Assembly: GCA_964457585.1 (NCBI GenBank) | Contig: CAYWFU010000007.1 | Span: forward strand, 5,275 to 69,274 | Direction: 5' to 3' | Source: an uncultured bacterium | GTDB taxonomy: Bacteria; JACRDZ01 | Length of the DNA stretch: 64,000 nt | Part shown: one piece after another, positions 7,348-52,547 of the stretch | Layout of the letters: the number at the start of each line of letters is the position of its first letter | Position numbering within the stretch: position 1 is the first letter of the stretch | Made by a program: the position numbers and the translations under genes | The notes under the pieces: model-generated | What the model was told of the DNA's origin: nothing | What the model saw: the letters and a program-made list of their open reading frames with translations, nothing else | The model's database searches: none

Positions 7348-8292
7348 ATGCATAATTTACCATTTCCAAGAGTTATCCGAATAGAACCGGCTAGCTTATG
7401 TAATCTAAAATGTTCACATTGTCCTACAGGGACTATTAAATTAGAACGTGGGATAATGGACATAACAACATTTCAGATTGTTATTGAAAATATAAAAAAA
7501 AATATTGATTTTATAAAAGTAGCAGTAATGTATCATGGAGGGGAACCTCTTATTAACAAAGACCTGTCCATGATGATATCAGAAGTAAAAGATATAGGTA
7601 TCCCCTTTGTAAAGACTGTATCAAACGGAATGTTTCTAAATGAAAAATCGACTGAAGCTTTAGTTAAAAGCGGGTTAGATAGTATTGAAATTTCCATTGA
7701 TGCAACAAGTTCAGAAATTAGCGATTTTGTTAGAAAAAATAGCAACTCAAAAAAAATAATGGAGAACATAAAAAGATTTATATCTATTAAAGATGAGTTA
7801 AAATTAAGCACTCCAGAGGTTTTTATTGCTACAACCCAATTCAAAGACAAAGCATCTACATTTGTTGAAGCTCAGGTTCCTAAATACCTTCTGGATGAAT
7901 TTCGGGATTTATATAAGGAGAAAAAGCTTAATTTCATATCGACTTACGCAATGCTATGGCCTCACATGGAAGTAGACACATCAATATATGATGTATTTTG
8001 TATTAAAGAGTCAAAAGGAGCCAATGATACCTGCGATCACCTTAATAATACTATGACAATAAGATGGAATGGGGATATTGTCCCTTGTTGTTATGACCTT
8101 ACAAGTAGATATGTGATTGGCAACATCCATTCTGAAAAACTTTCAGAGATATGGAATAATGCTAGGCACAAAGCAATAAGGGATGGAATATTAAACAAAA
8201 AGTTCATTGGGCCTTGCAAGAGTTGCAATATGGTATTACCTGGTAATTATATATCATTGAAAGAAGAAGTAATACGCAGAGTCACAGGATAA
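7348..8292 (+). CDS. radical SAM enzyme with C-terminal SPASM/twitch-like Cys-rich domain
   Basis: CNLKCSHCPTG (Cx3Cx2C) near N-terminus; C-terminal NGDIVPCCYD...GPCKSCN auxiliary-cluster motif. Confidence 0.75.
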   Translation: MHNLPFPRVIRIEPASLCNLKCSHCPTGTIKLERGIMDITTFQIVIENIKKNIDFIKVAVMYHGGEPLINKDLSMMISEVKDIGIPFVKTVSNGMFLNEKSTEALVKSGLDSIEISIDATSSEISDFVRKNSNSKKIMENIKRFISIKDELKLSTPEVFIATTQFKDKASTFVEAQVPKYLLDEFRDLYKEKKLNFISTYAMLWPHMEVDTSIYDVFCIKESKGANDTCDHLNNTMTIRWNGDIVPCCYDLTSRYVIGNIHSEKLSEIWNNARHKAIRDGILNKKFIGPCKSCNMVLPGNYISLKEEVIRRVTG

Positions 8293-12727: not shown

Positions 12728-13780
12728 TTGAATCCAATTCAAATTAGTAATAAAAAAATAGGGCAGGGTTATGAACCATTTATTATTGCTGAAATGTCAG
12801 GGAATCATAATCAGTCATTAGAAAGAGCTTTAGCTATAATTGAAGCAGCAGCAAAAACAGGTGTCCATGCTTTGAAGCTGCAAACTTATACGGCAGATAC
12901 AATGACTTTAGATATTGAAGAAGGGGATTTTTTTATTGAAGATCCAAAAAGTTTATGGAAAGGAACTTCATTATATAAACTTTACCAAAAAGCTTACACT
13001 CCATGGGAATGGCATGAGCCTATTTTTAAGCGGTGTAAAGAATTGGGCTTAATCGCGTTTAGTACTCCTTTTGATGAGACATCTGTGGATTTTTTAGAAA
13101 AATTGAATGTCCCAGCATATAAAATAGCATCATTTGAAAATAATCATATACCTTTAATTCGTAAAGTTGCATCTACGGGAAAACCTATGATTATATCTAC
13201 CGGTATGGCAACAATAGCAGAGCTTGATGAAACAATCAGAACAGCAAGAAATTCCGGCTGTAATGATATAATATTGCTCAAATGTACAAGTACATATCCT
13301 GCTACACCGGAAGATGCAAATATCATGACCATACCGCATATGCACAAATTATTCAATGTGCAGGTTGGCTTATCCGACCACACAATGGGAATAGGTGTTG
13401 CAATAGCAAGTGTAACATTGGGAGCAACAGTTGTTGAAAAACATTTCACACTAAGACGTGCTGATGGTGGTGTGGATTCAGCATTTTCAATAGAACCGGA
13501 AGAAATGCAAATGCTTGTAAAAGAAACTAATAATGCATGGCAGGCGTTAGGAAAAGTTAATTACGGCCCAACTAAAACAGAAAAATCATCGATGAGATAT
13601 CGAAGATCTCTTTATGTGATTCAAGATATTGAAGCAGGAGGGCAATTCACCCATGATAATATTAAGGCAATTAGACCGGGTTTTGGTTTACCAACTAAAT
13701 ATATTGAAATAATTATTGGAAGAAAAGCAAAAAAAATAATTAAAAAAGGCACTCCTTTATATTGGGATTTAATTTTTTAA
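12728..13780 (+). CDS. pseI: pseudaminic acid synthase, PseI (NeuB family, full length with C-terminal SAF domain)
   Basis: PFIIAEMSGNHNQSLERALAIIEAAAKTGVHALKLQTY NeuB TIM-barrel signature plus C-terminal antifreeze-like domain; TTG start. Confidence 0.85.
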   Translation: MNPIQISNKKIGQGYEPFIIAEMSGNHNQSLERALAIIEAAAKTGVHALKLQTYTADTMTLDIEEGDFFIEDPKSLWKGTSLYKLYQKAYTPWEWHEPIFKRCKELGLIAFSTPFDETSVDFLEKLNVPAYKIASFENNHIPLIRKVASTGKPMIISTGMATIAELDETIRTARNSGCNDIILLKCTSTYPATPEDANIMTIPHMHKLFNVQVGLSDHTMGIGVAIASVTLGATVVEKHFTLRRADGGVDSAFSIEPEEMQMLVKETNNAWQALGKVNYGPTKTEKSSMRYRRSLYVIQDIEAGGQFTHDNIKAIRPGFGLPTKYIEIIIGRKAKKIIKKGTPLYWDLIF

Positions 13781-13846: not shown

Positions 13847-14611
13847 ATGAAATTGAAAAATAAAATAAGTCAAGACAAAATTTATAGCACAGAGGAACAA
13901 CTTAGTGTTAAAACACAATTGGGTGATTTGTTTGAGTCTGATAGAGGGCAAACATCTGATAAATTAAGCGCTTTTACAAAGTATATTACCAGACAAGATT
14001 TAAGTCTTTTTCTGGCACGATATGAAATTTTTAAAAAAGTCATGGGTATTAAAGGCTCAATTATTGAATGTGGAGTTTATTTTGGAAATGGGCTTATGAC
14101 TTATTCACAACTGAGTGCTGCATTGGAACCAATAAATTATAATCGACGAATTATAGGTTTTGATACATTTTGCGGGAACAAGGGGGAAACGAAAAACGAT
14201 TTACCTAGTAAAGCAGCTGCTGGTTTAACGCAAGCACAATATGATATTGATTCAGAAAATGAAATACTAAAATGTATAAATATTTATGATAAAAATCGTT
14301 TTTTAAATCATATTTCTAAAGTAGAGTTGGTAAGGGGAGATATTATTAAAACAATTCCACAATATATTATTGAAAATCCACACTTAATAGTGAGTATTTT
14401 AGAGCTATCTGTAAATCTTTATGAGCCGACTAAAGTCGCATTAAAACATATCTTACCAAGAATGACAAAAGGGTCAATTATTTCGGTTAATACTTTGAAT
14501 GAAGGGATTTTTCCTGGTGTAACTTTGGCTATTAAAGAAGAATTGGGAATTAATAATGTGTGTATTCAAAGTTTTGAATATGCACCAAACCTCTCTTATA
14601 TTGTTTTATAA
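13847..14611 (+). CDS. TylF/MycF-family class I SAM-dependent (O-)methyltransferase
   Basis: IIECGVYFGNGLMTYS and IIGFDTFCG resemble macrocin-O-methyltransferase family motifs (E.GV..G.S ... FDSF.G). Confidence 0.5.
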   Translation: MKLKNKISQDKIYSTEEQLSVKTQLGDLFESDRGQTSDKLSAFTKYITRQDLSLFLARYEIFKKVMGIKGSIIECGVYFGNGLMTYSQLSAALEPINYNRRIIGFDTFCGNKGETKNDLPSKAAAGLTQAQYDIDSENEILKCINIYDKNRFLNHISKVELVRGDIIKTIPQYIIENPHLIVSILELSVNLYEPTKVALKHILPRMTKGSIISVNTLNEGIFPGVTLAIKEELGINNVCIQSFEYAPNLSYIVL

Positions 14612-14654: not shown

Positions 14655-15944
14655 ATGAAGTTTCGTTATATGAAAAGATTTATCGATGAATTAATAGAAT
14701 ATTTTCTTGTGAATTTAAAGGGTTATAAGAATTCAAAAGATTCTGAACTATTAAACAATACTATTTCTTTGAAAAATAAGTACAAAGGAGAGCGGCTGTT
14801 TATATTTTTTTCAGGGGTGAGTATAAAAAAAATAAATTTGGATATTTTCAACAACGAATATACAATGGCAACAAATTATTTTGTACTTCATTATAAGTTT
14901 AAAAAACTTAATTTTGATTTTTATAGTATGGTTGCTTCTTGGAATATGAAAGAAGCCATTAACTATGAGTGGCTTACCGGTATTGTCTATAATAAAGTGA
15001 AACCGGAAATGAAGATATTTCTTCATTCCTCATCGCATAGCTGGCTTTCAAATATACCTTCATATAAACCCGAGATTACGTATTATGTTTCACCCTTACC
15101 TAATGGATTTCCTGATTATTGCAATGTGCAGGATTCAATGAAAGGAGTGTTCACTTGTAGCATATCTTTAGCAATACATATGGGATTTAAAGAAATTTAC
15201 CTTGTTGGTTCAGATTATACAAAATCACCGCAAATTGTAGGACATTTCTATGATGGGGAATATGTTAAGCAAGAGCCAACCAAAGAATTGTTAGAAATGC
15301 ACACTAATGTAAATGAATATGCGAAAAAAAATGGGGTAAAAATTTTTAATATAATTGAAGACGATTTTAAAAGTCCCATATTTGAGGGTATTAATATAAA
15401 TGACATTTATGCTCTTTTTAATAATCAAAATAAACAGTCTTATACTGATAAATTGATTGATAGGATCGATGCTTTAGTATTCGATTTTGATGGTGTATTG
15501 ACAGACAATTTAGTATATGTTGATCAGAACGGTAATGAACAGGTTTGCTGTAATCGAGGTGATGGACTTGCTTTTGATGCGCTTCGCAAGCTTAATATAA
15601 AGACTTTTATTATATCTACCGAAACAAATTCTGTTGTGGCAGAACGGGCAAAAAAATTAAAAATTCCTGTACAACAAGGTATTGCCAATAAACTGGAAGC
15701 ATTAATATCTTTAGCAAAAAAAGAAAATATAGATATAGCTCGTATATTGTATGTTGGAAATGATTTAAACGATCTGGAAGTTATGAAAACATGCGGGTTG
15801 TCTGCCTGTCCTGCGGATAGTCATGAAAGAATTAAAGAGATTAGCCGTTTTAAATTAAAAACTTTAGGTGGAAAAGGACTCGTTCGAGAGTTAGTAGAAG
15901 ATTTATTAAAAATAAATATTGAAGAAATTCTATATAAAAAATAA
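14655..15944 (+). CDS. fusion protein: N-terminal DUF115/MptE-like (Maf-type) domain + C-terminal KdsC-type HAD sugar-acid phosphate phosphatase
   Basis: N-terminal half: LFIFFSGVSI ... SISLAIHMGFKEIYLVGSDYT, the DUF115 pattern. C-terminal ~165 aa: ALVFDFDGVLTDN...GDGLA...YVGNDLNDLEVM...ADSH, the KdsC HAD motifs I-IV. Confidence 0.7.
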   Translation: MKFRYMKRFIDELIEYFLVNLKGYKNSKDSELLNNTISLKNKYKGERLFIFFSGVSIKKINLDIFNNEYTMATNYFVLHYKFKKLNFDFYSMVASWNMKEAINYEWLTGIVYNKVKPEMKIFLHSSSHSWLSNIPSYKPEITYYVSPLPNGFPDYCNVQDSMKGVFTCSISLAIHMGFKEIYLVGSDYTKSPQIVGHFYDGEYVKQEPTKELLEMHTNVNEYAKKNGVKIFNIIEDDFKSPIFEGININDIYALFNNQNKQSYTDKLIDRIDALVFDFDGVLTDNLVYVDQNGNEQVCCNRGDGLAFDALRKLNIKTFIISTETNSVVAERAKKLKIPVQQGIANKLEALISLAKKENIDIARILYVGNDLNDLEVMKTCGLSACPADSHERIKEISRFKLKTLGGKGLVRELVEDLLKINIEEILYKK

Positions 15945-15964
15945 AAAAAGGAGGAATTGAATTA

Positions 15965-16795
15965 ATGTTTATTATTGCAGAGATAGGAATCAATCATAAT
16001 GGTGATTTAAAAATCGCCAAACAGCTTATTGATGTTGCAAAGATCGCTGGTTGTGATGCAGTCAAATTCCAAAAAAGAACCATAGATTTGGTTTACACTA
16101 AGGAATTATTGGATTCACCGCGGGAAAGTCCATGGGGAAAAACACAGCGAGCCCAAAAAGAAGGCTTAGAGTTTAATTATGCTCAGTATAAAGAAATAGA
16201 CGATTATTGTCGTCATAAAGAAATTGAATGGTTTGCGTCTGCCTGGGATCATGAAAGCCAGAAATTCATAAGACAGTTTGATTTTAAACATAATAAAGTT
16301 GCATCAACAATGATAGTTGATGAGAAATTTTTAAAAATGGTTGCGAGCGAAGGAAAACATACATTTATATCTACAGGGATGAGTTCCCTGGATATAATCG
16401 ATAAAGCTGTTCAAATTTTCAGGGATATGAAATGTTCATTTGAACTTATGCATTGTGTTGCTACATATCCTATGAAAGATGAAGATGCAAATCTTAATTG
16501 TATTCCTATGCTTCGTGAGCGATATAAATGCGATGTTGGATATAGCGGACATGAAACAGGTTTGGCTATATCCTACGCTGCTGCGGCATTTGGAATATCC
16601 TCACTTGAAAGACATATAACATTAGACCGCGCTATGTATGGTTCCGATCAATCTGCTTCTGTTGAACCTATAGGTATTATGCAATTGGTTGGAGGTGTGC
16701 GAAAAATTGAACGTGTGCTTGGAAATGGTAAAAAAACAATTATAGAAGCAGAAATTCCAATTGCAAAAAAACTTCGTGCGCATATTCAAGGGTAA
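15965..16795 (+). CDS. NeuB-family sugar-phosphate/PEP-condensing synthase, short form lacking the SAF domain
   Basis: MFIIAEIGINHNGDLKIAKQLIDVAKIAGCDAVKFQK NeuB catalytic barrel; only 276 aa, no C-terminal antifreeze-like domain. Confidence 0.75.
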   Translation: MFIIAEIGINHNGDLKIAKQLIDVAKIAGCDAVKFQKRTIDLVYTKELLDSPRESPWGKTQRAQKEGLEFNYAQYKEIDDYCRHKEIEWFASAWDHESQKFIRQFDFKHNKVASTMIVDEKFLKMVASEGKHTFISTGMSSLDIIDKAVQIFRDMKCSFELMHCVATYPMKDEDANLNCIPMLRERYKCDVGYSGHETGLAISYAAAAFGISSLERHITLDRAMYGSDQSASVEPIGIMQLVGGVRKIERVLGNGKKTIIEAEIPIAKKLRAHIQG

Positions 16796-16806
16796 AGGGG
16801 AAAATT

Positions 16807-18246
16807 ATGATTATTAAAGATAAACGTAAATTTTTAAATGAAGAAACATGTTATAGTCCTGATTTTCATATAGCGGACTATGAATTGGGAAAATATTCTT
16901 TTAACGAATCCGCACTTTCAAATCTTGGAATTAAATCAACTATGACCAAATCTGAAGACTTATGGAAACGCGGGCGTAAAATTATTCCCTGTGGTACTCA
17001 GACACTTGGAAAGAGCCCGATAGGTTTTATTGATGGCGTTGCCCCTAAATATTTATCACATGGAAAAGGCGGCCGAGTCTGGGATGTTGACGGAAATGAA
17101 TATATAGATTGCTGGCTTGCCTGTTTACCAATAACGTTTGGATATCGTGTTGAAGAAATAGATAATGCTATAATCGAGCAGGTAACAAAAAGCGGAATTA
17201 CTTTTTCCCTAATGCATTCATTAGAGGTGGAAGTTGCTGAAATGCTGCAGGAAGATATTTCAATTGCTGAACAAATAAGGTTTACAAAAAACGGTTCTGA
17301 TGTTTGTGAAGCTGCTGTTCGTTTAGCAAGATATTTAACAAAACGAGATAAAGTTATTACTTTAGGTTATCATGGTTTTCATGATTGGTATATAGCAAGC
17401 ACTGATCGTAATGGCGGAATTCCTGATTGCATAAAAGAAAGAACTTTGCGTTTTGCTTATAATAATATTGATAATTTAAAAAAATTGTTTGATACAAATA
17501 AAAATGAGATAGCCTGTGTAATTATGGAGCCTACTATTTTTGAAGCTCCTAAGGATGATTTTTTAGCTAAAGTAAAAGATGTTTGTCATAAAAATGGAGC
17601 ATTATTGATTTTTGATGAAATGCTCACTGGTTATAGATTCTCAACTAACGGTGCAATGTCTTTTTTTGAAGTTGAGCCGGATTTAGCTACTTTCGGAAAA
17701 GGAATTGCTAATGGAATGCCGATAGGCATTCTCGTTGGATTAGAAAAACACATGCGAGGATTTGAAGAAGTTTTTCTTTCAAGCACTTATGGCGGGGAGA
17801 CTCTTACTCTTGCGGCAACATTAGCAGGTCTTAAGTATCACCGTAAGAATGATGTTGTTGGCCACATGTGGCAAATAGGGAAAATTGTTCTGGATAATTT
17901 CAGACAATCGATCAAAAAATTTAATTTAGAAAAAAACATATCAGCTATTGGTTACCCTGTACGACAAACATTGACTTTTAAAAAAGATAATGGGGAACCT
18001 GATTATAGCTTAGCAGGTCTTTTTCAACAGGAAATGCTGAAAAATGGTGTGCTATGCAATTCAGGACTTGGTTTTTGTCATAAACATTCTGCTAATGATG
18101 CTATGCATGTAGCAAGAAGTTTTGACAAAGCATGCTTATTAATGCAAGAAGCTATAAAATCCGGTAACCTTGAACGTTATTTAAAAGGTAACCCTGCGCA
18201 ACCTGTTTTTCGTGGATTGCGCGATCAGAAAGTAACATCAAATTAA
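16807..18246 (+). CDS. class-III PLP aminotransferase (glutamate-1-semialdehyde aminomutase-like)
   Basis: Fold-type I class III pattern; the catalytic-Lys region contains DEMLTGYRFSTNGAMSFF, with the lysine in ATFGKGIANGMPIGIL. Confidence 0.75.
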   Translation: MIIKDKRKFLNEETCYSPDFHIADYELGKYSFNESALSNLGIKSTMTKSEDLWKRGRKIIPCGTQTLGKSPIGFIDGVAPKYLSHGKGGRVWDVDGNEYIDCWLACLPITFGYRVEEIDNAIIEQVTKSGITFSLMHSLEVEVAEMLQEDISIAEQIRFTKNGSDVCEAAVRLARYLTKRDKVITLGYHGFHDWYIASTDRNGGIPDCIKERTLRFAYNNIDNLKKLFDTNKNEIACVIMEPTIFEAPKDDFLAKVKDVCHKNGALLIFDEMLTGYRFSTNGAMSFFEVEPDLATFGKGIANGMPIGILVGLEKHMRGFEEVFLSSTYGGETLTLAATLAGLKYHRKNDVVGHMWQIGKIVLDNFRQSIKKFNLEKNISAIGYPVRQTLTFKKDNGEPDYSLAGLFQQEMLKNGVLCNSGLGFCHKHSANDAMHVARSFDKACLLMQEAIKSGNLERYLKGNPAQPVFRGLRDQKVTSN

Positions 18247-18255
18247 AAGGACATC

Positions 18256-19083
18256 ATGCTAGGAAGTTCATTGTTTGGAGTAATGCAGGGCAGATTACTT
18301 CCTAAATATAAAGGACGTTATCAAGCCCATCCATTAGGATATTGGCAGGAAGAATTTTTTATTGCTGCAAAATTTGGTTTGGATATTATTGAATTTATTC
18401 TTGATTATGAAGATGCTGAAAAAAATCCAATTTTATTTGATCCTGATTCAATATGTAAAATAATTGAAAAAACAGGAGTGAAAGTAAAAAGCGTATGCGC
18501 AGATTATTTTATGGAAGCTCCTGTATATTCAAACCCTGATAGCAGTGCTATTCTTGAACGTTTAATTCGAAATGCGAGTATTGTTGGAATACGTGATATT
18601 GTTATCCCATGTGTGGATAAATCCAGTCTTCATGGACGCAAAGAAGCAGCATCATTTATTGAAAATTTGCTTGCTGTCATTCCTTTAGCAGAGAAAACAG
18701 AAGTGAATTTGGCTCTTGAAACTGATTTGCCCCCGGATGATTTTGCATGGTTGTTATCACAATTTAATTCTAAAGTAGTGACAGTTAATTATGATACCGG
18801 TAACAGCGCTTCTTCAGGGTATAATCTGATTGAAGAATTTGAAGCCTATGGTGATCGCATTACTGATATACATATAAAAGATAGAATTTGCGGAGGAGGC
18901 TCGGTATTATTAGGTACCGGCAATACAGACTTTGATGCACTTTTTTTATTTTTATCAAAAAACAAATTTAGTGGACCATTAATTATGCAAGCTTATCGAG
19001 ATGACGAGGGTATTGAGATTTTCAAACAACAACAAAAGTGGATACAAGATCGGTATAATAGATTTATAGAAAGGATTAAATAA
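18256..19083 (+). CDS. xylose-isomerase-like TIM-barrel sugar(-phosphate) isomerase/epimerase
   Basis: Metal-ligand motifs LALETD and DIHIKD typical of the AP_endonuc_2 / xylose isomerase-like TIM barrel. Confidence 0.55.
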   Translation: MLGSSLFGVMQGRLLPKYKGRYQAHPLGYWQEEFFIAAKFGLDIIEFILDYEDAEKNPILFDPDSICKIIEKTGVKVKSVCADYFMEAPVYSNPDSSAILERLIRNASIVGIRDIVIPCVDKSSLHGRKEAASFIENLLAVIPLAEKTEVNLALETDLPPDDFAWLLSQFNSKVVTVNYDTGNSASSGYNLIEEFEAYGDRITDIHIKDRICGGGSVLLGTGNTDFDALFLFLSKNKFSGPLIMQAYRDDEGIEIFKQQQKWIQDRYNRFIERIK

Positions 19084-19844
19084 TGTCAAATGTAAACGTA
19101 GTTGCTTTAATTCAAGCTCGGGGAGGTTCTAAAGGTGTACCGGGAAAAAATATACGACCATTGGGTGGATACCCTTTAATAGCATGGTCAGTAGTAGCAT
19201 GCAAATTATGTAAAAATATTGACCGAGTTGTTATTTCAACAGACAGCCATGAAATCGCTGATATAGGAAAGAAATATGGGGCAGAAGTTCCTTTTATGCG
19301 TCCTGCTGAATTCGCTACTGATACAGCTAATGATTTAGATGTTATTAAGCATGCATTAGGATGGTTCAAAGATGTTGAAAAAAGAATTCCTGATTTAATA
19401 ATTCAAATTAGACCAACGACGCCGCTGCGAGAACCATCTTTAATGGATGATGCAATTCGTTTGATGCAGAAACATCCTGAAGCTACTGGATTATTATCGG
19501 TATTTGAAATGCCTGAATCTCATTGCAAAATGTTCGGCATGAAGAAAGATGGGTTCTTACATGGATTATGTCCTGATGATCCGCGTCCTGAATATTTTAA
19601 TTTACCACGTCAAGTATTTCCTCCAACATATTTTGCAGGCGGATATATTGATATTATCAAACCAGGCACAGTATTAGATTTGAAAATGTGTTATGGTGAT
19701 CGTATACTTGGTTTTATTTCACCAGATAGCGGTGAAGTTGATAGTCCGGAAGATTTTAAACGTTTAGAATATTTAATGAGCGATTATGGGCAAACAGTAT
19801 ATGAATATTTAAGGAAAAATTTTTATGAAAAAAACTGTAATTGA
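19083..19844 (+). CDS. acylneuraminate (CMP-nonulosonate) cytidylyltransferase, NeuA family
   Basis: VALIQARGGSKGVPGKNIRPLGGYPLIAWSV classic NeuA N-terminus. Confidence 0.8.
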   Translation: MSNVNVVALIQARGGSKGVPGKNIRPLGGYPLIAWSVVACKLCKNIDRVVISTDSHEIADIGKKYGAEVPFMRPAEFATDTANDLDVIKHALGWFKDVEKRIPDLIIQIRPTTPLREPSLMDDAIRLMQKHPEATGLLSVFEMPESHCKMFGMKKDGFLHGLCPDDPRPEYFNLPRQVFPPTYFAGGYIDIIKPGTVLDLKMCYGDRILGFISPDSGEVDSPEDFKRLEYLMSDYGQTVYEYLRKNFYEKNCN

Positions 19845-20652
19845 TATATTTGATTTGACTGGAAGAGTAGCTATTATTACAGGCGGCGCAGGTTTGCTTG
19901 GTATAAAACATGCTGAAGCTATATCAGAATTAGGCGGGATTCCGGTTCTACTTGATATATCAAAAGAGGCAATAGATGCAGCAGTTGTTAAAATAAATAA
20001 GCCTTGTGCGGGACTTATAGCTGATATTACCGATGAAAAAGCATTAACTGACACGCTAGAACGTGTAGTACATGATTATAATCGGATTGATATTTTAATC
20101 AATAATGCGGCAGATAATCCAAAAGTCGAGAGTAAAGAATTTGCGAGCAAACAATGGTGCAGGCTGGAAAATTTTCCTCTTAACGCATGGGAAAAAAGTA
20201 TTTCTGTAGGATTAACAGGAGCATTCCTTTGTTCAAAAGTTTTTGGTACTGAAATGGCAAAACGTGGTAAAGGAGTTATTCTCAATATTGCTTCAGACCT
20301 TGCTGTTATTGCTCCCGATCAACGAATTTACCGCACACCAGGATTATCTATAGAAAACCAACCTGTTAAGCCTGTTACTTATTCAGTGGTAAAAGCTGGA
20401 TTGATAGGACTAACACGTTATATTGCCACTTATTGGAATGAATTTGGTGTGCGCTCAAATGCACTTGTGCCGGGTGGCGTATACAATGAACAGCCGGATG
20501 ATTTTGTTCAGCGTTTGACCAATCTTATTCCTATGGGACGAATGGCAAATGCTGATGAATATAAAGCCGCAGTGGCATTTTTAGTTTCCGATGCCTCATC
20601 TTATATGACAGGCGCCTCTCTGGTAATCGATGGTGGAAGAACCGCATGGTGA
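19825..20652 (+). CDS. short-chain dehydrogenase/reductase (classical SDR)
   Basis: TGGAGLLG dinucleotide motif, NNAA, catalytic YSVVK (YxxxK). Confidence 0.85.
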   Translation: MKKTVIDIFDLTGRVAIITGGAGLLGIKHAEAISELGGIPVLLDISKEAIDAAVVKINKPCAGLIADITDEKALTDTLERVVHDYNRIDILINNAADNPKVESKEFASKQWCRLENFPLNAWEKSISVGLTGAFLCSKVFGTEMAKRGKGVILNIASDLAVIAPDQRIYRTPGLSIENQPVKPVTYSVVKAGLIGLTRYIATYWNEFGVRSNALVPGGVYNEQPDDFVQRLTNLIPMGRMANADEYKAAVAFLVSDASSYMTGASLVIDGGRTAW

Positions 20653-21899
20653 GTCCTTCAGATAATTTAGTGCAAAATAACAATCAAAAATGGTATTTAT
20701 CATATAGCATAAATTTATCAGAAAAAAGTATTTATACATTTTTATTTGTTTTATCATTGATTTACTCAACACTATTAATCAGAATAATGAATCCCTTAGT
20801 CAATAATGAGCATCTTACGTATTCCTTATTGGTGATAGAGGAATATGTTTTATTGTTCATTTTATTAGTTTGTTATTTTTTACGGAATTCGATAAAAATA
20901 CCTGATATTACAATGACAGTGCTGGTGATAGCATATATGTATTTTTCAGCATGGATAAAACATGATGCGGATATTTATTATTTAAAATTATCAATATTTT
21001 TTTTTCTTCACTATTTAGTTTATATTAATATTTTTGAACGATTGGATAAACGTATAGTTTTTTATATTCTTATGCTGTATGGATTTCTTATTTCAATATT
21101 CTATATTAATTTAATGTATTCAAATGTTAATATTATTGCATCGACAGAAGTTGCAGGACATCTCGGCAAAAGAGGTTCCTCTGAAGAATTTGGTATGCTT
21201 ACTAATGTAAATAATATTTCAATGATATTAGTTGGAATTTCAACACTTTTAGTAGTTATAAAACATAATTTTGAGATTAGTAAAAAAATGATATTATTAT
21301 CATTAATTCTACATTTAACAGTATTATTAGTTTTAATAATCAATGCAACCGTTTCAGCTATTTTATTTTTCATTTCTTTATTAATTTATGATCTTTATAA
21401 AATGTATGGTTTTTCTAGTTTCGCAGTTTTATTATTAATTATAAGTGTAATAGGCTATTTTGGATTTAATATATCTAATTTATTAATATTTCAACGTGCG
21501 GAGTCCGGTGCTACATTTGATATTAGAATAATAAATATGATGCAATCACTTGATATATTTAAAAATAATCCATTTTTTGGCATTGGTCATTCACTCATTG
21601 CTGAAATAGAGACAGGATTGGTTTATTCTACTGATCATAATTTTTACACAAAACTTTTGGGTGCTGAAGGAATGATTGGTTTTTTATTATATGGTTGTTT
21701 TTTTTATAATTTTTTACGTTCACGTAGAGTATATTTCAAAGGTCTAAACCTGTTACGTTTCTATTTTTTATTTTTCTTGATTTTCACACCCGCCGGTTGT
21801 TCAGTTATGATGATTGTTGCAGCTTTAATTTATGAGATTAGCGGATATTATTCAATTTCAAATAATTCTCATATAAACGAAAATGGATATTTGATTTAA
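20646..21899 (+). CDS. polytopic membrane protein, Wzy polymerase / O-antigen-ligase-like
   Basis: About 10 hydrophobic helices with one larger loop; the only Wzy-like candidate in the locus. Real start probably an internal Met. Confidence 0.45.
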   Translation: MVSPSDNLVQNNNQKWYLSYSINLSEKSIYTFLFVLSLIYSTLLIRIMNPLVNNEHLTYSLLVIEEYVLLFILLVCYFLRNSIKIPDITMTVLVIAYMYFSAWIKHDADIYYLKLSIFFFLHYLVYINIFERLDKRIVFYILMLYGFLISIFYINLMYSNVNIIASTEVAGHLGKRGSSEEFGMLTNVNNISMILVGISTLLVVIKHNFEISKKMILLSLILHLTVLLVLIINATVSAILFFISLLIYDLYKMYGFSSFAVLLLIISVIGYFGFNISNLLIFQRAESGATFDIRIINMMQSLDIFKNNPFFGIGHSLIAEIETGLVYSTDHNFYTKLLGAEGMIGFLLYGCFFYNFLRSRRVYFKGLNLLRFYFLFFLIFTPAGCSVMMIVAALIYEISGYYSISNNSHINENGYLI

Positions 21900-21901
21900 A
21901 C

Positions 21902-22573
21902 ATGAATATTTTAAAAGATAAATTAAAGAAATTGCGAAGAAAAATTTATTGTTTCCGTTTTCCATATTTTAAAGCTTATGCTAATTTATTGATTAAATTT
22001 AATTTTTCAATAAAATTATTTTTAATTTGGTTGAAAAATGTATTATTTTTTGATCAGATGATAAGATTTCAATGTAATAAAGTTGGTAAAAATATATTTA
22101 TTTGGAAGGAATATCCATCAATTTTAAATAAAGGATATATTGAAATGGGAGATAATATAAATATATTTGGGGAAAATTATTTTAGAGTCGGGATTATCCT
22201 TTCTGATATTAATAAACCAAGATTGATCATAGGTAATAATGTTGATATTGGGTATCAATGTGATATTAATGTTGCGGGTATCGTTAGTATTGGTAATAAT
22301 GTTTTTCTAGCAAATGGTGTGAAAATATTTGATAATAATTCACATCCATTAGATATAAAAGAAAGACAGCATAAATCTCCTTTAGCAAATGAACATATAT
22401 CTCCTGTTGTTATAAAAGATGATGCATGGATTGGAATAAATGCAATAATTTTAAAAGGGGTTACTATAGGTAGAGGTGCAATAATAGGAGCAGGATCTGT
22501 TGTAACTAAGGACATTCCAGATAATGTAATTGCAGTGGGTAATCCAGCCAGAGTTATTAAGGATATTAAATAA
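21902..22573 (+). CDS. hexapeptide-repeat (LbH) sugar O-acetyltransferase
   Basis: Tandem [LIV]G..xx[IV] hexapeptides: IGNNVDIGYQCDINVAGIVSIGNNVFLANGVKI ... IGINAIILKGVTIGRGAIIGAGSVV. Confidence 0.8.
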   Translation: MNILKDKLKKLRRKIYCFRFPYFKAYANLLIKFNFSIKLFLIWLKNVLFFDQMIRFQCNKVGKNIFIWKEYPSILNKGYIEMGDNINIFGENYFRVGIILSDINKPRLIIGNNVDIGYQCDINVAGIVSIGNNVFLANGVKIFDNNSHPLDIKERQHKSPLANEHISPVVIKDDAWIGINAIILKGVTIGRGAIIGAGSVVTKDIPDNVIAVGNPARVIKDIK

Positions 22574-22737: not shown

Positions 22738-23679
22738 ATGGAAACAAAAAATGATAATACAAAAAAGATGACGGTTAGCGAAACTTATAGTAAGTATGTT
22801 TTTTCAGAATGGCCTGATGTTTTGGGAGACCTGTACGCGAAATATAAAGACCGTAACCATGTCGTTACTTATAAAGGAAATATTAATAATGTATTTCGAG
22901 CTGTATTTGTGTTCGATTATTTAAAAAAATTTTTTCCTAATGGTTGCAAAGTTATCGATATTGGTTGTGGTATAGGTTATATCTCTCATTACCTGTCTAA
23001 AAATGGTTATGATGTCCATGCCTTCGACGCTAGCGATACTGGAATCTTAAAAGCTAAAGAAGTAGCGAGTCAGATCGGTATTAATCCGGATATATTTGTG
23101 TGTCATGACCATACATACCTTGAAAAAGTTCCTAGTGAATCTGTAGATGTTGCACTAGCGATGGGGTTTCTTTATTATCTGGATGAAAAGACCAGAGATT
23201 ATTGTTATAAGCAAATTAACAGAATCTTAAAGAAAAAGGGGCGTTTTTTAATGACTGGTAATAATAAATTATTTGAAGCTTTTGCTCTAAATGATACTAC
23301 ACTTAAATTTTGGGCAGAGATGATAGATGATTTTTCTCCAGTATCGAAGTTGCTTACTCCAAAAACGACTCTTGATGCTTTATGTGAAAAAGTCAAAGTA
23401 CCAAAAAGAATATTTGAAGAAAAGAGTATCAGCAAAAAATTTAAGTTACTTGAAGATAATCCGCTGACTTTCCATAAAGATTTACGTGAGTATGATTTTG
23501 AAGTTGAAGAAATACTTTATCCCGATAGTCATTTATTAATTCCCGCCCTTGAAGCTGAAGTTGATCAAGATGCTTTGTTGAAATTAAAAGCTGAATATTG
23601 TGTTCAGAAAGCCAGAGACTGGCGAGGTATATTTATGTGTTATGAATTTCTTGCCTTTATGCATAAGGGCGCTGTTTAA
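22738..23679 (+). CDS. class I SAM-dependent methyltransferase (Methyltransf_11/23-like)
   Basis: Motif I VIDIGCGIGYIS, motif post-I DVHAFDAS. Confidence 0.7.
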   Translation: METKNDNTKKMTVSETYSKYVFSEWPDVLGDLYAKYKDRNHVVTYKGNINNVFRAVFVFDYLKKFFPNGCKVIDIGCGIGYISHYLSKNGYDVHAFDASDTGILKAKEVASQIGINPDIFVCHDHTYLEKVPSESVDVALAMGFLYYLDEKTRDYCYKQINRILKKKGRFLMTGNNKLFEAFALNDTTLKFWAEMIDDFSPVSKLLTPKTTLDALCEKVKVPKRIFEEKSISKKFKLLEDNPLTFHKDLREYDFEVEEILYPDSHLLIPALEAEVDQDALLKLKAEYCVQKARDWRGIFMCYEFLAFMHKGAV

Positions 23680-23763: not shown

Positions 23764-25146
23764 ATGGTAGTAGAAAAGTATCAATTTAGTCTTGAACCAA
23801 AAAAAGTTCCACTAGTGGAAACAAAAAATCGTCGAATTAAAACAGCAATCCCTGCTCCGGGAACAAAAGAGCTTATGGAGCGAATTGCAGCTGTTGAAAG
23901 TTCCAATGCAATGGATCAGCTTCCTGTAATATGGGATAGAGCTTTAGGCCATCAGATTTTCGATCCATGGGGAAATTGTTGGATAGATTTTACATCAACT
24001 ATATTTGTGACAAATGTCGGGCATGCGCATCCATACATGAAAGAATCGATAAAAAAACAAATGGATAATCTGATGCATTCATATAGTTATCCAACTGAAA
24101 TTCGTGCTCGTTATGTTGAAAAATTAATTGCATTTACCCCTAGCAATCTTAAGAAAGCTTCTCTTTTTTCAACAGGGACAGAAGCGGTTGAAAGAGCAGT
24201 TAAGATTGCGCGGCTTTATGGCTTAAAATCTAATCCTGCACGAAAACTTATTGTTGGATGGGATGGAAATTTTCATGGTAAAACCATGGGATCTCAAATG
24301 GTTGGCGGACAGCATGCTGATAAATATTGGATAGGTTATCTTGATCCAAATATGACACATCTTCCATTTCCATTTCCATGGGTTATGGAAAAATCAGGAT
24401 TAACAGGTGAGGAGAAGTTCAAACAGGATATTAATTCATTAAAAGAAAAAGGTATTAATTTAAAAGATATAACTGCTTTTATTGTTGAAACATTTCAAGG
24501 TTGGGGTGCAGTTTTTTATCCTAAAGATTATATCCAAGCAATGAGATGCTGGGCAGATGAAAATGATGTATTATTAATATTTGATGAGATTCAAGCTGGC
24601 TTTGGTCGTACAGGACGCTTGTTTGCTTATGAACATTATGATGTGAATGCAGATGTTGTAATTTGTGGTAAAGGAATTTCAGGAAGTATTCCTCTTTCTG
24701 CTGTAATTGGCAGAGCTGATGTAATTGATCTTGATCCTGCGTATACAAGTACTCATGGCGGGCATCCTCTTGCATGTACAGCCGGACTTGCTAATATAGA
24801 AATTTTTGAAAAAGAAAATCTTATAAGTGAGTCAAAGCGAAAAGAAGGAATATTTCTTTTTGAATTAAATCGATGGAAAGAACATTTCCCAAAAAGAATA
24901 GGCAGAATTTTAGGTAAAGGAATGATTTGGGGCGTTTACATTACAACTCCTGGAGGAAAAGACGAACTCGATACTGTTTTTTGTGATAAAATTATTGAGC
25001 GCGCTTTGCAGAAAGGCGTGTTCAACATCAGAACAGGCAAGGGAACCATCAAAATAGGTCCGCCTTTAAACATTCCGGATGATGCATTGATTGAAGGTTT
25101 ACGAGTGATAGAAGAGAGTATATCCGAACTTATAAAAAATAACTAA
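23764..25146 (+). CDS. class-III PLP aminotransferase (second paralogue)
   Basis: IFDEIQAGFGRTGRLFA, CGKGISG (catalytic Lys), THGGHP; AT-III family. Confidence 0.8.
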   Translation: MVVEKYQFSLEPKKVPLVETKNRRIKTAIPAPGTKELMERIAAVESSNAMDQLPVIWDRALGHQIFDPWGNCWIDFTSTIFVTNVGHAHPYMKESIKKQMDNLMHSYSYPTEIRARYVEKLIAFTPSNLKKASLFSTGTEAVERAVKIARLYGLKSNPARKLIVGWDGNFHGKTMGSQMVGGQHADKYWIGYLDPNMTHLPFPFPWVMEKSGLTGEEKFKQDINSLKEKGINLKDITAFIVETFQGWGAVFYPKDYIQAMRCWADENDVLLIFDEIQAGFGRTGRLFAYEHYDVNADVVICGKGISGSIPLSAVIGRADVIDLDPAYTSTHGGHPLACTAGLANIEIFEKENLISESKRKEGIFLFELNRWKEHFPKRIGRILGKGMIWGVYITTPGGKDELDTVFCDKIIERALQKGVFNIRTGKGTIKIGPPLNIPDDALIEGLRVIEESISELIKNN

Positions 25147-25206
25147 TTTTGTATACTATTTTCAGCAAAATACTTACGAAATTATTATAATTATATTTTA
25201 TATTTA

Positions 25207-25568
25207 GTACTACAGCGCTATAGTGAGATAGTGCGACAGAGCGACCAATGGCATTGACACTAAATCTATTATTAAATTGAGCATTGAGCATTGACAATTG
25301 AGCATTGAGCATTAAATCATCCTTTTGCCTATTGTTTTTATGCTGTTATTAATAATTTTACATAATTTATTACATTCTTTCATAGTATAATCTATGGAAT
25401 TATTTTAGCCCTTAATGCTCAATTGTCAATGCTCAATGCTCAATCGTCAATTTAGTGTCAATGCCATTGACAGAGCGACAGCCTGCAGTATGAGATGACT
25501 AGAACTGACAATAGACACAGGCTAACTTGCATAAAACTGTCGTACTATCGCACTGTAGCGCTGTAGTA
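25207..25568. repeat. MITE-like non-coding element with 18-bp terminal inverted repeats and long internal inverted repeat of (TTGAGCA)n / ATTGACA units
   Basis: Terminal inverted repeat tactacagcgctatagtg (25209-25226) vs cactgtagcgctgtagta (25551-25568), 1 mismatch. Inner arms ~25228-25314 vs ~25411-25481 are largely reverse-complementary. TTAG directly flanks both ends. No ORF. Confidence 0.55.
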
Positions 25569-25606
25569 TTAGTATTCACATATTAATAATTAAGGAGAAT
25601 ATAGTA

Positions 25607-26995
25607 ATGAGAATTCTTTTAATAGCTTATGATAATGATTCACATATTTCGGTTTTTCCTCTCGGTTTGGCATATATAGCAGCTGTTTGTAGAAATGCAG
25701 GTCATGATGTGGTGATTTACAATCAAGATATTCATCACTGGTCTGAATCACATTTATTGGAGTTTTTGAATAAAAATAAGTTCAATGTAGTTGGGTTGGG
25801 TGTTGTAGGTGGTTATTATCAATATAGAAAATTGCTAAAAATATCAGGAGCAATTAATAAAGCAAAGAATAAACCTTTTTACATTATTGGTGGACATTGT
25901 CCCTCTCCCGATCCGGAATACTTTTTGAAAAAGACACAAGCAGATGTTGTAGTAATTGGAGAAGGTGAAAATACGATACTGGACTTGTTAAAAGTGTTAG
26001 AAGAGAAAAAAGATATATCATCTGTTGATGGAATTGCGTTTATGAAGGATGGAAGATGTTTTCAAACACCTAGACGTGCACTAATACAAGATATAGATAA
26101 TATTCCCCACCCTGCATGGGATTTATTTCCAATGGAGCACTATGTTTTATTGCGAGAAGCAAATGCCAAAAAAACCGAACGTAGTATGCATGTCTTATCA
26201 GGCAGAGGATGTATTTTTAAATGCAATTTTTGTTATAGAATGGATGAAGGTTACAGAGCAAGGTCTTCCGACGCTATAATAGAAGAAATAAGGAAATTAC
26301 AAAAAGAATATTCTATTTCATATATCGACTTCCTAGATGAACTTTTTATGGTTTCAGAAAAAAGGACAATCGAATTATGTGAGAGCTTTATTAAATCAAA
26401 GATTAAATTTAATTGGTTTTGTAGTGGGAGATTAAATTTTGCCAAGACAGATGTTCTTAAACTTATGAAAGATGCAGGATGTGTGTTTATTAATTATGGA
26501 ATTGAGTCATTAGATGAAAATGCTCTACGTGTTATGAATAAAGCTCTTACTGTTAAACAAATTATTACGGGTATTGAAAATACATTATCAGTTGGAATAA
26601 GCCCGGGTTTAAATATTATATGGGGAAATATTGGAGAAACAATTGAATCATTAAAGATGGGAGTTGATTTTTTATTAAAATATGATGACCATGCACAAAT
26701 GAGAACAATCAGGCCTGTAACACCATATCCAGGATCTCCGCTTTATTATTATGCTATTGAAAAGGGTCTATTGAAAGACTGTAAAGATTTTTATGAAAAT
26801 AAGCATATTAATTCTGATTTATTAGCAGTTAATTTTACCAATTTGACTGATGACGAATTCCATAAGGCATTATTTGAAGCAAATAAAATACTTATAAATA
26901 AGTACTATGATTCTCAAAACAAAAAAGTAATCGAAAATGCATGTAAGCTATATTTTGATAAGGATGTCTCATTCAGAGGGTTTAGACAGACTTGA
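25607..26995 (+). CDS. B12-binding-domain radical SAM enzyme (class B), paralogue 1
   Basis: N-terminal cobalamin-binding Rossmann-like domain (ILLIAY...GLGVVGG...IIGGHCPS), then SGRGCIFKCNFCYR CxxxCxxC. Confidence 0.8.
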   Translation: MRILLIAYDNDSHISVFPLGLAYIAAVCRNAGHDVVIYNQDIHHWSESHLLEFLNKNKFNVVGLGVVGGYYQYRKLLKISGAINKAKNKPFYIIGGHCPSPDPEYFLKKTQADVVVIGEGENTILDLLKVLEEKKDISSVDGIAFMKDGRCFQTPRRALIQDIDNIPHPAWDLFPMEHYVLLREANAKKTERSMHVLSGRGCIFKCNFCYRMDEGYRARSSDAIIEEIRKLQKEYSISYIDFLDELFMVSEKRTIELCESFIKSKIKFNWFCSGRLNFAKTDVLKLMKDAGCVFINYGIESLDENALRVMNKALTVKQIITGIENTLSVGISPGLNIIWGNIGETIESLKMGVDFLLKYDDHAQMRTIRPVTPYPGSPLYYYAIEKGLLKDCKDFYENKHINSDLLAVNFTNLTDDEFHKALFEANKILINKYYDSQNKKVIENACKLYFDKDVSFRGFRQT

Positions 26996-51968: not shown

Positions 51969-52547
51969 ATGATAAAGGAATGGACTTTAAATTATATTTC
52001 TGATCTTAAAAATGTTTTTGATAATTTTCCAGTGGAAAAATTTGAGAAAATAGCAAATATACTTCTAGATACATATGAAAGAGATTGTACAATTTTTACA
52101 TTTGGTAATGGTGGAAGCGGGTCTACGGCTTCACATCTTGCTTGTGATATTAATAAAGGAGTAAGTCAGGAATTAAATAAAAGATTTAGAGTTATATGTC
52201 TTAATGATAATATCCCTACTTTGCTTGCATATGCTAATGATCTGTCGTATGAGGATGTATTTGTTGAACAATTAAAAAATTTTTTAAAACCTAATGATGT
52301 TATAATAGGAATTTCCGGAAGTGGAAATTCTAAAAATATTTTAAAAGCAATCCAATATGGAAATGAAAATTCTGCTATAACAGTTGGTTTTACAGGTTTT
52401 GATGGAGGAAAACTTGCGGTTATAGCAAAAGAATCCTTTATCGCTCCTTCAAATGATATGCAAAAAATTGAGGATGTACATTTAATTTTAACTCATATAT
52501 TTATGCAAATATTTATAAGAAAATTAAAAGAAGAAGATGCAAAATAA
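51969..52547 (+). CDS. SIS-domain sugar-phosphate isomerase (GmhA/DiaA-like, sedoheptulose-7-P isomerase family)
   Basis: FGNGGSGSTASHLACDI and ISGSGNS, the SIS motifs of GmhA. Confidence 0.7.
   Translation: MIKEWTLNYISDLKNVFDNFPVEKFEKIANILLDTYERDCTIFTFGNGGSGSTASHLACDINKGVSQELNKRFRVICLNDNIPTLLAYANDLSYEDVFVEQLKNFLKPNDVIIGISGSGNSKNILKAIQYGNENSAITVGFTGFDGGKLAVIAKESFIAPSNDMQKIEDVHLILTHIFMQIFIRKLKEEDAK

Follow-up and report, generated by a model that had tools for sequence, protein, structure and literature searches.

A SAF-less NeuB synthase and its widespread gene neighbourhood: a probable second CMP-ulosonic acid pathway beside a pseudaminic acid gene set

Sialic-acid-like sugars cap bacterial and archaeal surfaces, where they govern immune recognition, phage adsorption and motility, and current catalogues assume few routes to such compounds: those of neuraminic (Neu), legionaminic (Leg) and pseudaminic acid (Pse), of 2-keto-3-deoxynononic acid (Kdn) and of Kdo (3-deoxy-D-manno-octulosonate). 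The Kdn pathway has been characterised in Bacteroides thetaiotaomicron (BT1714, BT1713 and a CMP-Kdn synthetase; CMP, cytidine monophosphate) and in Prymnesium parvum (PMC6200933). In Leptospira interrogans, LA_1613 (sas/neuB2), LA_1614 (a pyridoxal phosphate-dependent aminotransferase) and LA_1615 (neuA2) lie side by side, beside a conventional Leg/Pse pathway; LA_1613 couples a NeuB domain to an 'endonuclease/phosphatase-like' domain, and an animal-like route through N-acetylneuraminic acid 9-phosphate (Neu5Ac-9-P) was proposed, with the fused domain as the phosphatase and without enzymology (PMC3438082, PMC4758666). A phylogenomic survey reported that ~30% of 13,941 nonulosonic acid (NulO) synthases, mostly environmental, are without the SAF domain, a feature whose significance 'remains to be investigated' (PMC8208679). 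Here we describe such a SAF-less synthase, called sNeuB below, and the gene module around it, in a stretch of 64,000 nucleotides from an uncultured bacterium (contig CAYWFU010000007.1, positions 5,275 to 69,274; hereafter the window, whose own numbering is used throughout).

We consider it rather probable that the region from 14655 to about 26995 encodes a self-contained second pathway, one that leads to a 3-deoxy-2-ulosonic acid activated with CMP, is separate from that of pseudaminic acid and, like the Kdo and Kdn routes, is based on sugar-phosphate chemistry, not on that of UDP-6-deoxy-hexosamines (UDP, uridine diphosphate). The second gene set is intact, and very probably it starts from a sugar phosphate and makes a sialic-acid-like sugar other than that of the pse set. 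With its relatives in other genomes, it represents a widespread variant of CMP-ulosonic acid biosynthesis via phosphorylated intermediates, one that earlier work has touched on but not characterised. The original prediction for this DNA had named six open reading frames (ORFs), a second NeuB synthase among them, next to a complete pseudaminic acid set; all six were recovered at the coordinates given and with their domains by ORF listing, Pfam and NCBIfam. They are listed here together with the PseI synthase of the upstream set (PEP, phosphoenolpyruvate; HAD, haloacid dehalogenase; GSA, glutamate-1-semialdehyde; SDR, short-chain dehydrogenase/reductase):

12728-13780, full-length PseI of 350 aa, in the upstream pse set
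14655-15440, + strand, N-terminal domain (262 aa) of the fused ORF 14655-15944, Maf/sialyltransferase-like (DUF115/MptE-like superfamily), putative CMP-ulosonate transferase
15456-15944, + strand, C-terminal domain of the same ORF (aa 268-420), HAD phosphatase of KdsC/Kdn-9-P-phosphatase type (C0), by NCBIfam
15965-16795, + strand, SAF-less NeuB-family synthase (sNeuB), 276 aa, putative PEP + aldose-phosphate condensing enzyme (Pfam NeuB)
16807-18246, + strand, GSA-aminomutase-like class-III aminotransferase, 479 aa (PRK06209, 360.7 bits, cut-off 486)
18256-19083, + strand, xylose-isomerase-like TIM barrel (AP_endonuc_2), candidate UlaE-like sugar-phosphate epimerase/isomerase (Pfam, 72.5 bits)
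19083-19844, + strand, NeuA/KdsB-family cytidylyltransferase, putative CMP-ulosonate synthetase (CTP_transf_3, 86.5 bits)
19825-20652, + strand, SDR oxidoreductase, gluconate-5-dehydrogenase/KduD-like (adh_short_C2, 126 bits)

The consecutive genes between 13847 and 22573 are spaced in an operon-like way, from a 20-bp overlap to a 43-bp gap. Our scan gave promoter-like sites no more often than shuffled sequence did, and terminator-like sites slightly more often; none of the latter stood at a gene end within the six-gene block.

Judged by its sequence, sNeuB is a bona fide second synthase and not a remnant of pseI. The Pfam NeuB profile (PF03102) matches it with 225.8 bits (cut-off 22.1) and is covered over positions 1-241 of 241; the protein ends ~20 aa past this domain, and the SAF domain, the source of R314 in Neisseria meningitidis NeuB (NmeNeuB), was not found in it by Pfam or NCBIfam, in agreement with the original prediction. 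It remains below the equivalog cut-offs of the NeuB_NnaB (244.6 vs 399.65 bits) and PseI (180.2 vs 340.25 bits) models, and is 27-34% identical to canonical enzymes of the NeuB/PseI/LegI type and 30% identical, over 259 residues, to the PseI of the window. Eleven catalytic, metal and PEP residues were mapped from NmeNeuB (1XUU), and all of them (E25, K53, Q55, K129, S132, Y186, S213, H215, E234, H236 and D247, NmeNeuB numbering) are kept in sNeuB and in 64 of 64 clade members. The clade has in addition a signature of its own: F112 of NmeNeuB is replaced by an invariant Trp (W94), D214/T216 by G/E within the motif SGHE (G195, E197), and E134 is not kept, being Met in sNeuB and Ser in a sister subclade tied to thiamine pyrophosphate (TPP) enzymes. 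An invariant basic pair, K37-R38 (KFQKR), immediately follows the K53/Q55 strand; in canonical enzymes these two positions hold T and H/Y/F. In human NANS, a loop favours the phosphorylated substrate (PMC8208679). Because their position appears to match this loop, a correspondence that is itself inferred, K37 and R38 may be regarded as candidate phosphate ligands.

In a neighbour-joining tree of the NeuB domain, the short proteins form one clade, for which the SAF-less form is the rule, and NmeNeuB, Bacillus subtilis SpsE, Campylobacter jejuni PseI, the window PseI and 6NCS all fall outside it. The last is a crystallised SAF-less NeuB homologue from Leptospira (L. borgpetersenii). A search of 5.8 billion proteins returned more than 8000 clusters of sNeuB homologues, the best 120 of which come from different phyla, are 73-79% identical to sNeuB and are all 275-312 aa long (nearly all ~280 aa). 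Counting one genome per GTDB species, at least 595 species carry sNeuB, archaea included. Carriers are found in Leptospirales, Elusimicrobiota, Omnitrophota, SAR11, SAR116, Prochlorococcus, Lachnospiraceae, Acidobacteriota, Thermoplasmatales, Methanoperedens and Nitrosopumilus. Some carriers are in culture, among them Azospirillum thermophilum CFH 70021, Methylomagnum ishizawai RS11D-Pr, Caulobacter sp. Root1455 and Acidocella aquatica. Among the matches listed, the closest genome is a metagenome-assembled one of an uncultured Leptospirales (L004), with 74% identity.

The company that sNeuB keeps is equally conserved. For 83 related loci, all ORFs within 8 kb of the synthase were clustered and the cluster representatives annotated, with the following frequencies (SAM, S-adenosylmethionine):

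KdsC-type HAD, 49 of 83 loci (tblastn)
cytidylyltransferase, 44-46 of 83 loci
SDR, 36 of 83 loci, with a median identity of 54% to the window SDR
GmhA-like SIS_2 isomerase, 33 of 83 loci (190 bits vs the GmhA cut-off of 209)
NAD-epimerase, 33 of 83 loci
SAM methyltransferases, 28 of 83 loci
AP_endonuc_2 TIM barrel, 22-28 of 83 loci
acetolactate-synthase-like TPP enzyme, 21 of 83 loci
acetylornithine-type class-III aminotransferase, 16 of 83 loci
DegT aminotransferase, 14 of 83 loci
radical-SAM/SPASM protein, 14 of 83 loci
glyoxalase, 11 of 83 loci
class-IV aminotransferase, 10 of 83 loci
GFO oxidoreductase, 9 of 83 loci

A frequent order is SIS_2, HAD, NeuB, TIM barrel, cytidylyltransferase, class-III aminotransferase, glyoxalase, methyltransferase, SDR, SDR (L001, L008, L013). 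The order of the window (HAD, NeuB, GSA-like aminotransferase of 479 aa, TIM barrel, cytidylyltransferase, SDR) is repeated exactly in a metagenomic locus (L084), with 45-72% amino acid identity, and a longer contig with the same gene (P0244) continues the six-gene block with a second class-III aminotransferase of 462 aa. Gene fusions elsewhere join the same functions: SIS_2+HAD, HAD+CTP_transf_3 (very common), cupin+HAD, GFO+HAD, methyltransferase+HAD, NeuB+AP_endonuc_2 and, in one protein of 714 aa, NeuB, cytidylyltransferase and HAD. Such linkage and fusions with a KdsC/Kdn-9-P-type phosphatase and a NeuA-type cytidylyltransferase fit a phosphorylated, Kdn/Kdo-like route. They also bear out the proposal that synthase, phosphatase and CMP-transferase mirror the Kdn/Neu5Ac 9-phosphate route, a linkage conserved across phyla. 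A PseB-like dehydratase occurs in only 8 of the 83 loci, and the module is therefore independent of Pse/Leg chemistry.

Other contexts were seen in the same set. In the sister subclade with Ser at the E134 position, HAD, an acetolactate-synthase-like TPP enzyme and a methyltransferase of the FkbM type regularly come after the synthase (L059-L078, from Acidobacteriota and others; L018, L026, L027 and L034, from Lachnospiraceae), and in Methylomagnum (L088) a split transketolase precedes a class-III aminotransferase, SDR, sNeuB and HAD. These arrangements suggest TPP-dependent two-carbon chemistry coupled to ulosonate synthesis, and hint at still other feeding routes. A LIC12162-family protein of ~590 aa (the Pfam name comes from a Leptospira interrogans gene) is near the synthase in two distant loci, directly after it in one (L085, 16453-18207) and ~7 kb downstream in the other (L002, 17908-19677). 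It might serve the product as its own transferase or polymerase, and in the window no homologue of it was found.

The phosphatase domain, which adjoins the synthase in the window, has the HAD motifs DFDGV at aa 277 and GNDLND at aa 368. It reaches 107.9 bits on the NCBIfam model KDN-9-PPhBT (cut-off 180) and 101.2 bits on the KdsC subfamily model, both below cut-off. Its PDB relatives are, in decreasing order, 3MMZ (115 bits), a Streptomyces avermitilis protein, the Kdn-9-P phosphatase BT1713 (90), KdsC (73) and, in mouse CMP-sialic acid synthetase, the phosphatase-like domain at the C terminus (60), so that in this search it is closer to BT1713 than to KdsC. The Streptomyces genes for teichulosonic acid (Kdn) were considered as a functional anchor and rejected: with just 34% identity to sNeuB, a NeuB homologue from Streptomyces is placed outside the clade.

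This resemblance to BT1713 raises the question of a plain Kdn (or Neu5Ac) pathway, in which sNeuB would be a Kdn-9-P/Neu5Ac-9-P synthase working with the HAD phosphatase and a CMP-Kdn synthetase, leaving the aminotransferases, the SDR and the TIM barrel to the synthesis of other repeat-unit sugars. What is made would then be a sialic acid known already. Besides the phosphatase, whose best named relative is BT1713, a stand-alone mannose-6-phosphate isomerase (PMI) cupin in the locus could supply mannose 6-phosphate, and cupin+HAD fusions exist. The neuB2 sub-cluster of Leptospira was moreover proposed to make Neu5Ac, a sugar detected there, by the animal-like 9-phosphate route (PMC3438082). However, the genes for aminotransferase, SDR and TIM barrel lie among those for synthase and cytidylyltransferase, in an interleaved order kept in distant genomes, which is not expected if the enzymes served unrelated sugars; the commonest partner isomerase is GmhA-like (of heptose type) and not PMI; and sNeuB is without E134 and has its own active-site signature. 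We therefore regard a plain Kdn pathway as unlikely, and return to a dedicated pathway in which the interleaved enzymes take part.

A sugar precedent for their involvement comes from the GSA-like aminotransferase. Its homologues are up to 72-75% identical, one copy (P0244/L084) lying in the same six-gene order, and its PDB relatives include GSA aminomutases and sugar C-6' aminotransferases of the GenB type (7LLD, 7LM0). GenB-type enzymes transaminate a terminal sugar aldehyde in gentamicin biosynthesis, and thus offer a direct precedent for oxidation of a terminal CH2OH followed by transamination, the logic of 8-amino-8-deoxy-Kdo (Kdo8N) formation. The best NCBIfam models for the SDR are of the gluconate 5-dehydrogenase, GolD and KduD types, all below cut-off, and it is 66% identical to the SDR of L084. 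Gluconate-5-dehydrogenase and KduD oxidise C5 of (2-keto-3-deoxy-)gluconate, which makes C5 an alternative site of oxidation. The pairing of SDR and class-III aminotransferase is kept across related loci, so that the earlier suggestion of an oxidation-transamination pair gains from both conservation and the GenB precedent, and its comparison with Kdo8N, as a likeness in logic with other enzyme families, holds. The TIM barrel matches L-ribulose-5-phosphate 3-epimerase models weakly, and its only PDB match is UlaE, an enzyme of that specificity (E 1e-10). This points to a sugar-phosphate epimerase or isomerase acting upstream of condensation, which, where there is no SIS gene, as in the window, may itself supply the aldose phosphate.

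The fused ORF proved to contain more than the KdsC-type phosphatase first ascribed to it, which was confirmed as its C-terminal part. No curated family matched the N-terminal 262 aa, the sole Pfam match being MptE-like at 22 bits (cut-off 34.6). Stand-alone homologues are 37-43% identical, and one of them lies in a locus with a NeuB-SAF-AP_endonuc_2 fusion, SIS_2, SDRs, a Wzy-like protein, a TIM barrel, a class-III aminotransferase of 474 aa and a cytidylyltransferase. An exhaustive HMMER search delineated a family of ~1100 representatives, in which remote homologues carry genuine MptE-like/DUF115 domains (55-145 bits), and in a model of medium confidence, derived from four sequences, the fold is Maf- and sialyltransferase-like. 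The most economical reading of this model would be a CMP-ulosonate-dependent glycosyltransferase fused to a phosphatase of the pathway. A degenerate cytidylyltransferase, suggested by BLAST against a HAD+CTP_transf_3 protein (P0169), was rejected, as the alignment is spurious in its N-terminal part and the domain has its own family.

The cytidylyltransferase at 19083, of a type often fused to a HAD domain in other genomes, scores 117 bits on the PseF model (cut-off 205.7), and this has to be read against the window as a whole, which is one large Wzz/Wzy-type polysaccharide locus (Wzz/Wzy/Wzi of Gram-negative type, GC content ~30%) with glycosyltransferases, a PglK-like flippase, an initiating phosphotransferase and four B12-radical-SAM genes. 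Upstream of the sNeuB block it contains, as originally predicted, the complete pseudaminic acid set: PseB, PseC, a cytidylyltransferase, a Pse-associated methylase, the WbuX/HisH/WbuZ amidino genes, PseG, a formyltransferase, a PIG-L deacetylase, a GNAT protein and the full-length PseI. The module could then be an accessory of this pathway, with sNeuB as a redundant or alternative synthase of PseI/LegI type, the 19083 enzyme as the real PseF, and the aminotransferases and SDR making N-acyl substituents or modifying CMP-Pse. The cytidylyltransferase at 4733 in the pse set reaches only 26.5 bits on the PseF model; sNeuB stands beside Leg genes in Azospirillum; and a GSA-like aminotransferase occurs in a Legionella locus of 4-epi-legionaminic type (PMC3694923). 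Against this, the pse set is complete alone, having its own full-length PseI as well as a cytidylyltransferase at the place of pseF. Pse/Leg chemistry has no use for a KdsC-type phosphatase, which is nevertheless the commonest neighbour of sNeuB and is fused to pathway enzymes. PseB-like dehydratases are rare in sNeuB loci, and the sNeuB clade is well apart from PseI and SpsE in the tree. An accessory role in pseudaminic acid synthesis thus appears quite improbable, and the separate pathway remains the preferred interpretation. As for the 4733-5461 cytidylyltransferase itself, KdsB-like subfamily models fit it better than PseF does; it also shows a weak spiro-SPASM match, and a radical-SAM/SPASM gene (7348-8292) adjoins it, to which it may be functionally linked.

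Finally, that sNeuB is a truncated, non-functional copy of a full-length synthase such as pseI, for which one could cite the lack of the SAF domain that provides the substrate-binding arginine in NmeNeuB (PMC8208679), can be dismissed given the 30% identity to PseI, the intact catalytic and metal residues, the thousands of ~280-aa homologues with up to 79% identity across phyla, the short form of a whole monophyletic clade and the crystallised SAF-less 6NCS.

The functional unit extends beyond the six-gene block to which the original prediction had confined it, as the following genes indicate:

13847-14611, + strand, TylF/MycF-like O-methyltransferase, possible accessory of the module (Pfam TylF, 26.8 bits)
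20646-21899, + strand, Wzy_C-like membrane protein, polymerase or ligase, lying within the block (Pfam Wzy_C, 30.8 bits, slightly under cut-off)
21902-22573, + strand, hexapeptide-repeat acetyltransferase, candidate N/O-acetyltransferase for an amino-ulosonate (Hexapep, 47.9 bits; WbbJ/NeuD-like similarity)
22738-23679, + strand, class-I SAM methyltransferase (Methyltransf_11/25/31)
23764-25146, + strand, second class-III aminotransferase, 460 aa, acetylornithine/GABA-AT-like (Aminotran_3, 280 bits; PRK05769-like, 308 bits)
25607-26995, + strand, B12-binding radical-SAM enzyme, putative C-methyltransferase (B12-binding + Radical_SAM)

The second aminotransferase belongs to the acetylornithine-like type, the commoner of the two in the module, and shares 43-61% identity with the enzyme that follows the cytidylyltransferase in five other loci (L001, L004, L008, L085, L046); the 462-aa enzyme of the P0244 contig has the same relative position. 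The B12-radical-SAM enzyme is 60% identical over 462 aa to a gene in the L004 module. Because both have orthologues within the module elsewhere, the unit reaches at least 26995; a probable transferase domain also belongs to it. The Wzy_C-like gene overlaps the SDR gene by 7 bp, and a Wzy_C gene occupies the same position in the P0122 locus; in related loci an Antibiotic_NAT-type acetyltransferase sits between two aminotransferases. For the 22738-23679 methyltransferase, tblastn found no direct orthologue in the 83 related loci, SAM methyltransferases as such recurring in 28 as listed above. The TylF-like gene lies 43 bp upstream of the fused ORF, and a TylF-like methyltransferase follows sNeuB and HAD in Azospirillum thermophilum; its membership is uncertain, since a homologue is present in only 2 of the 83 loci.

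Two further features of this region were noted. The four B12-binding radical-SAM genes (25607-26995, 28352-30166, 40988-42430 and 47428-48921) are unusual for one polysaccharide locus; their products resemble C-/P-methyltransferases or HpnJ, similar genes accompany sNeuB in L002, L004 and L085, and C-methylated or otherwise radically modified sugars are suggested. The 460-bp gap between the second aminotransferase and the B12-radical-SAM gene (25147-25606), where related loci have glyoxalase and methyltransferase genes, is ORF-free. It holds a nested imperfect palindrome of ~400 nt, built partly of the 7-nt units ATTGAGC/ATTGACA (8 matches of the repeat motif vs 0.05 expected, all within the gap), with a predicted fold of -166 kcal/mol (z = -14.9 vs shuffles), and may be an insertion resembling a miniature inverted-repeat transposable element (MITE) or a large structured RNA.

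Assembled from these parts, the pathway would proceed in eight steps. (i) An aldose omega-phosphate would be supplied, the UlaE-like TIM barrel epimerising or isomerising a ketose phosphate, with the involvement elsewhere of a GmhA-like SIS isomerase; candidate suppliers in the window are, at the edges of the locus, a stand-alone 131-aa C-terminal cupin of PMI (778-1173) and a GmhA-like SIS_2 protein (51969-52547) that is 34% identical to SIS proteins of sNeuB modules. (ii) sNeuB would condense the aldose phosphate with PEP into an ulosonate omega-phosphate, (iii) from which the KdsC/Kdn-9-P-type HAD domain would take off the phosphate. (iv) The SDR would then oxidise a hydroxyl, either the freed terminal CH2OH or, by analogy with KduD and gluconate-5-dehydrogenase, that at C5, and (v) the class-III aminotransferases would add one or two amino groups, (vi) which would be acetylated, the sugar being methylated by the SAM and B12-radical-SAM methylases. 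(vii) The NeuA-type enzyme would form the CMP-sugar and (viii) the Maf/sialyltransferase-like domain would move it into a repeat unit handled by the embedded Wzy-like protein. The length of the backbone would depend on the substrate: mannose 6-phosphate, for which the PMI cupin and the cupin+HAD fusions speak, may give a Kdn-type C9 sugar; heptose 7-phosphate, in line with the commonest partner isomerase and the SIS_2 gene, may give a C10 sugar; and a pentose phosphate may give a C8 sugar.

Several observations weigh against this reconstruction. Each enzymatic step is deduced from family resemblance, and as all proteins of the module fall below curated equivalog cut-offs, no specific activity can be transferred to them; the relative order of amination and CMP activation is guesswork, and the transferase role of the N-terminal domain depends on the four-sequence model. 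No SIS isomerase adjoins the module in the window, the only SIS_2 gene being 31 kb away. The GSA-like aminotransferase is the rarer of the two types of the module (7 of 83 vs 16 of 83 loci). In Legionella pneumophila Sg6/12, moreover, such an enzyme lies beside a cytidylyltransferase in a conventional NulO locus of 4-epi-legionaminic type (PMC3694923), and so the sugar that it modifies could be another one, even Pse. Genes of the Leg pathway adjoin sNeuB itself in Azospirillum thermophilum.

A broader hypothesis, which we put forward tentatively as plausible but still somewhat short of an even chance, is that the SAF-less clade with Trp and Met at the F112 and E134 positions ('W/M') and its partners make a structurally new class of CMP-amino-ulosonic acids, from a central-metabolism sugar phosphate and PEP, with amination afterwards. 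If true, this would be a route to sialic-acid-like sugars beyond those from UDP- or GDP-hexosamines (Neu, Leg, Pse) and beyond plain Kdo/Kdn, with a backbone that could exceed nine carbons if a GmhA-like partner feeds heptose 7-phosphate. Hundreds of lineages, both bacterial and archaeal, would rely on it, among them Leptospirales, SAR11, Prochlorococcus, Nitrosopumilus and gut Lachnospiraceae. The literature gave nothing specific on the product of the module, on class-III aminotransferases in NulO pathways or on ten-carbon ulosonic acids; a 2026 preprint describes unassigned higher-carbon CMP-ulosonic acids in Magnetospirillum, to which no link with the sNeuB module could be made. The product was originally called possibly novel, and indeed no report of it was found, but the module is very widespread, and its Leptospira version and the SAF-less NeuBs had already been noted (PMC3438082, PMC4758666, PMC8208679). 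Overall, the earlier interpretation is partly supported, its pathway logic being the part that stands.

Elsewhere in the window, enzymes uncommon for bacterial surface-polysaccharide loci were seen: a D-glucuronyl C5-epimerase-like protein (46443-47414, 172 bits) and, adjoining it, a protein of 710 aa in which a zinc-alcohol-dehydrogenase-like domain is joined to a GFO/IolG-like oxidoreductase (44197-46329). Just past the polysaccharide locus, 55945-60120 on the - strand encodes a protein of 1391 aa with six Big_5 Ig-like domains and many RCC1 repeats, where the GC skew is locally inverted.

The window is one more instance of a common module, and it is the module that poses an open, easily testable problem of broad phylogenetic reach. 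Added to the routes now catalogued, it is a further, very widespread gene set, carried by relatives of pathogens (Leptospirales), by abundant microbes of the sea (SAR11, SAR116, Prochlorococcus and ammonia-oxidising archaea) and by gut anaerobes. Its compact, portable gene order and clear diagnostic residues make the product of the SAF-less NeuBs, and of Leptospira neuB2, directly testable. Genome annotation would improve as well, because in the annotated loci examined, a cultured carrier included, NCBI PGAP gives the members of the module generic names only.

Among known systems, the neuB2 cluster of Leptospira, likened here by its published description, is similar in that 15965-19844 unites the same four functions next to a pse set, and in that a phosphorylated-intermediate route was proposed there also. 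Going by that description, the extra domain of LA_1613 may be an AP_endonuc_2 domain; synthase and TIM barrel are then one protein in Leptospira, whereas in the window they are separate genes with an aminotransferase between them. As the window has a dedicated KdsC-type phosphatase, the TIM barrel more likely has a non-phosphatase role here. With the Kdn pathway the module shares the proposed logic of a NeuB-family synthase acting on a sugar 6-phosphate and PEP, followed by a C0-type HAD phosphatase and a CMP-transferase (PMC6200933). It differs in a phosphatase well under the Kdn equivalog cut-off, in a GmhA-like enzyme as the commonest partner isomerase elsewhere, and in an SDR, a TIM barrel, two class-III aminotransferases and methylases that are not needed for Kdn. 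The Kdo pathway (KdsD, KdsA, KdsC, KdsB) likewise runs from a ketose-phosphate isomerase through PEP condensation and a phosphatase to CMP activation, but the module has a GmhA-like SIS or UlaE-like TIM barrel instead of KdsD and NeuB instead of KdsA, and only its phosphatase and cytidylyltransferase are in the same families as KdsC and KdsB. The likeness to Kdo8N formation by Shewanella KdnB/KdnA is one of logic only, that is, possible oxidation of the freed terminal hydroxyl and then transamination. KdnB is Fe-alcohol-dehydrogenase-like and KdnA of the sugar-aminotransferase type, and the module has an SDR and class-III aminotransferases in their place. For the putative transferase domain, the closest known systems are the Maf flagellin glycosyltransferases and the GT42/GT29 sialyltransferases. 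With the canonical NeuB/PseI/LegI synthases (NmeNeuB, 1XUU; C. jejuni PseI, 8H2C), finally, sNeuB has in common the NeuB TIM barrel and all mapped catalytic, metal and PEP residues, and it departs from them in the absence of SAF, in the changes of E134 to Met and F112 to Trp, and in the clade-specific K37/R38 pair and SGHE motif.

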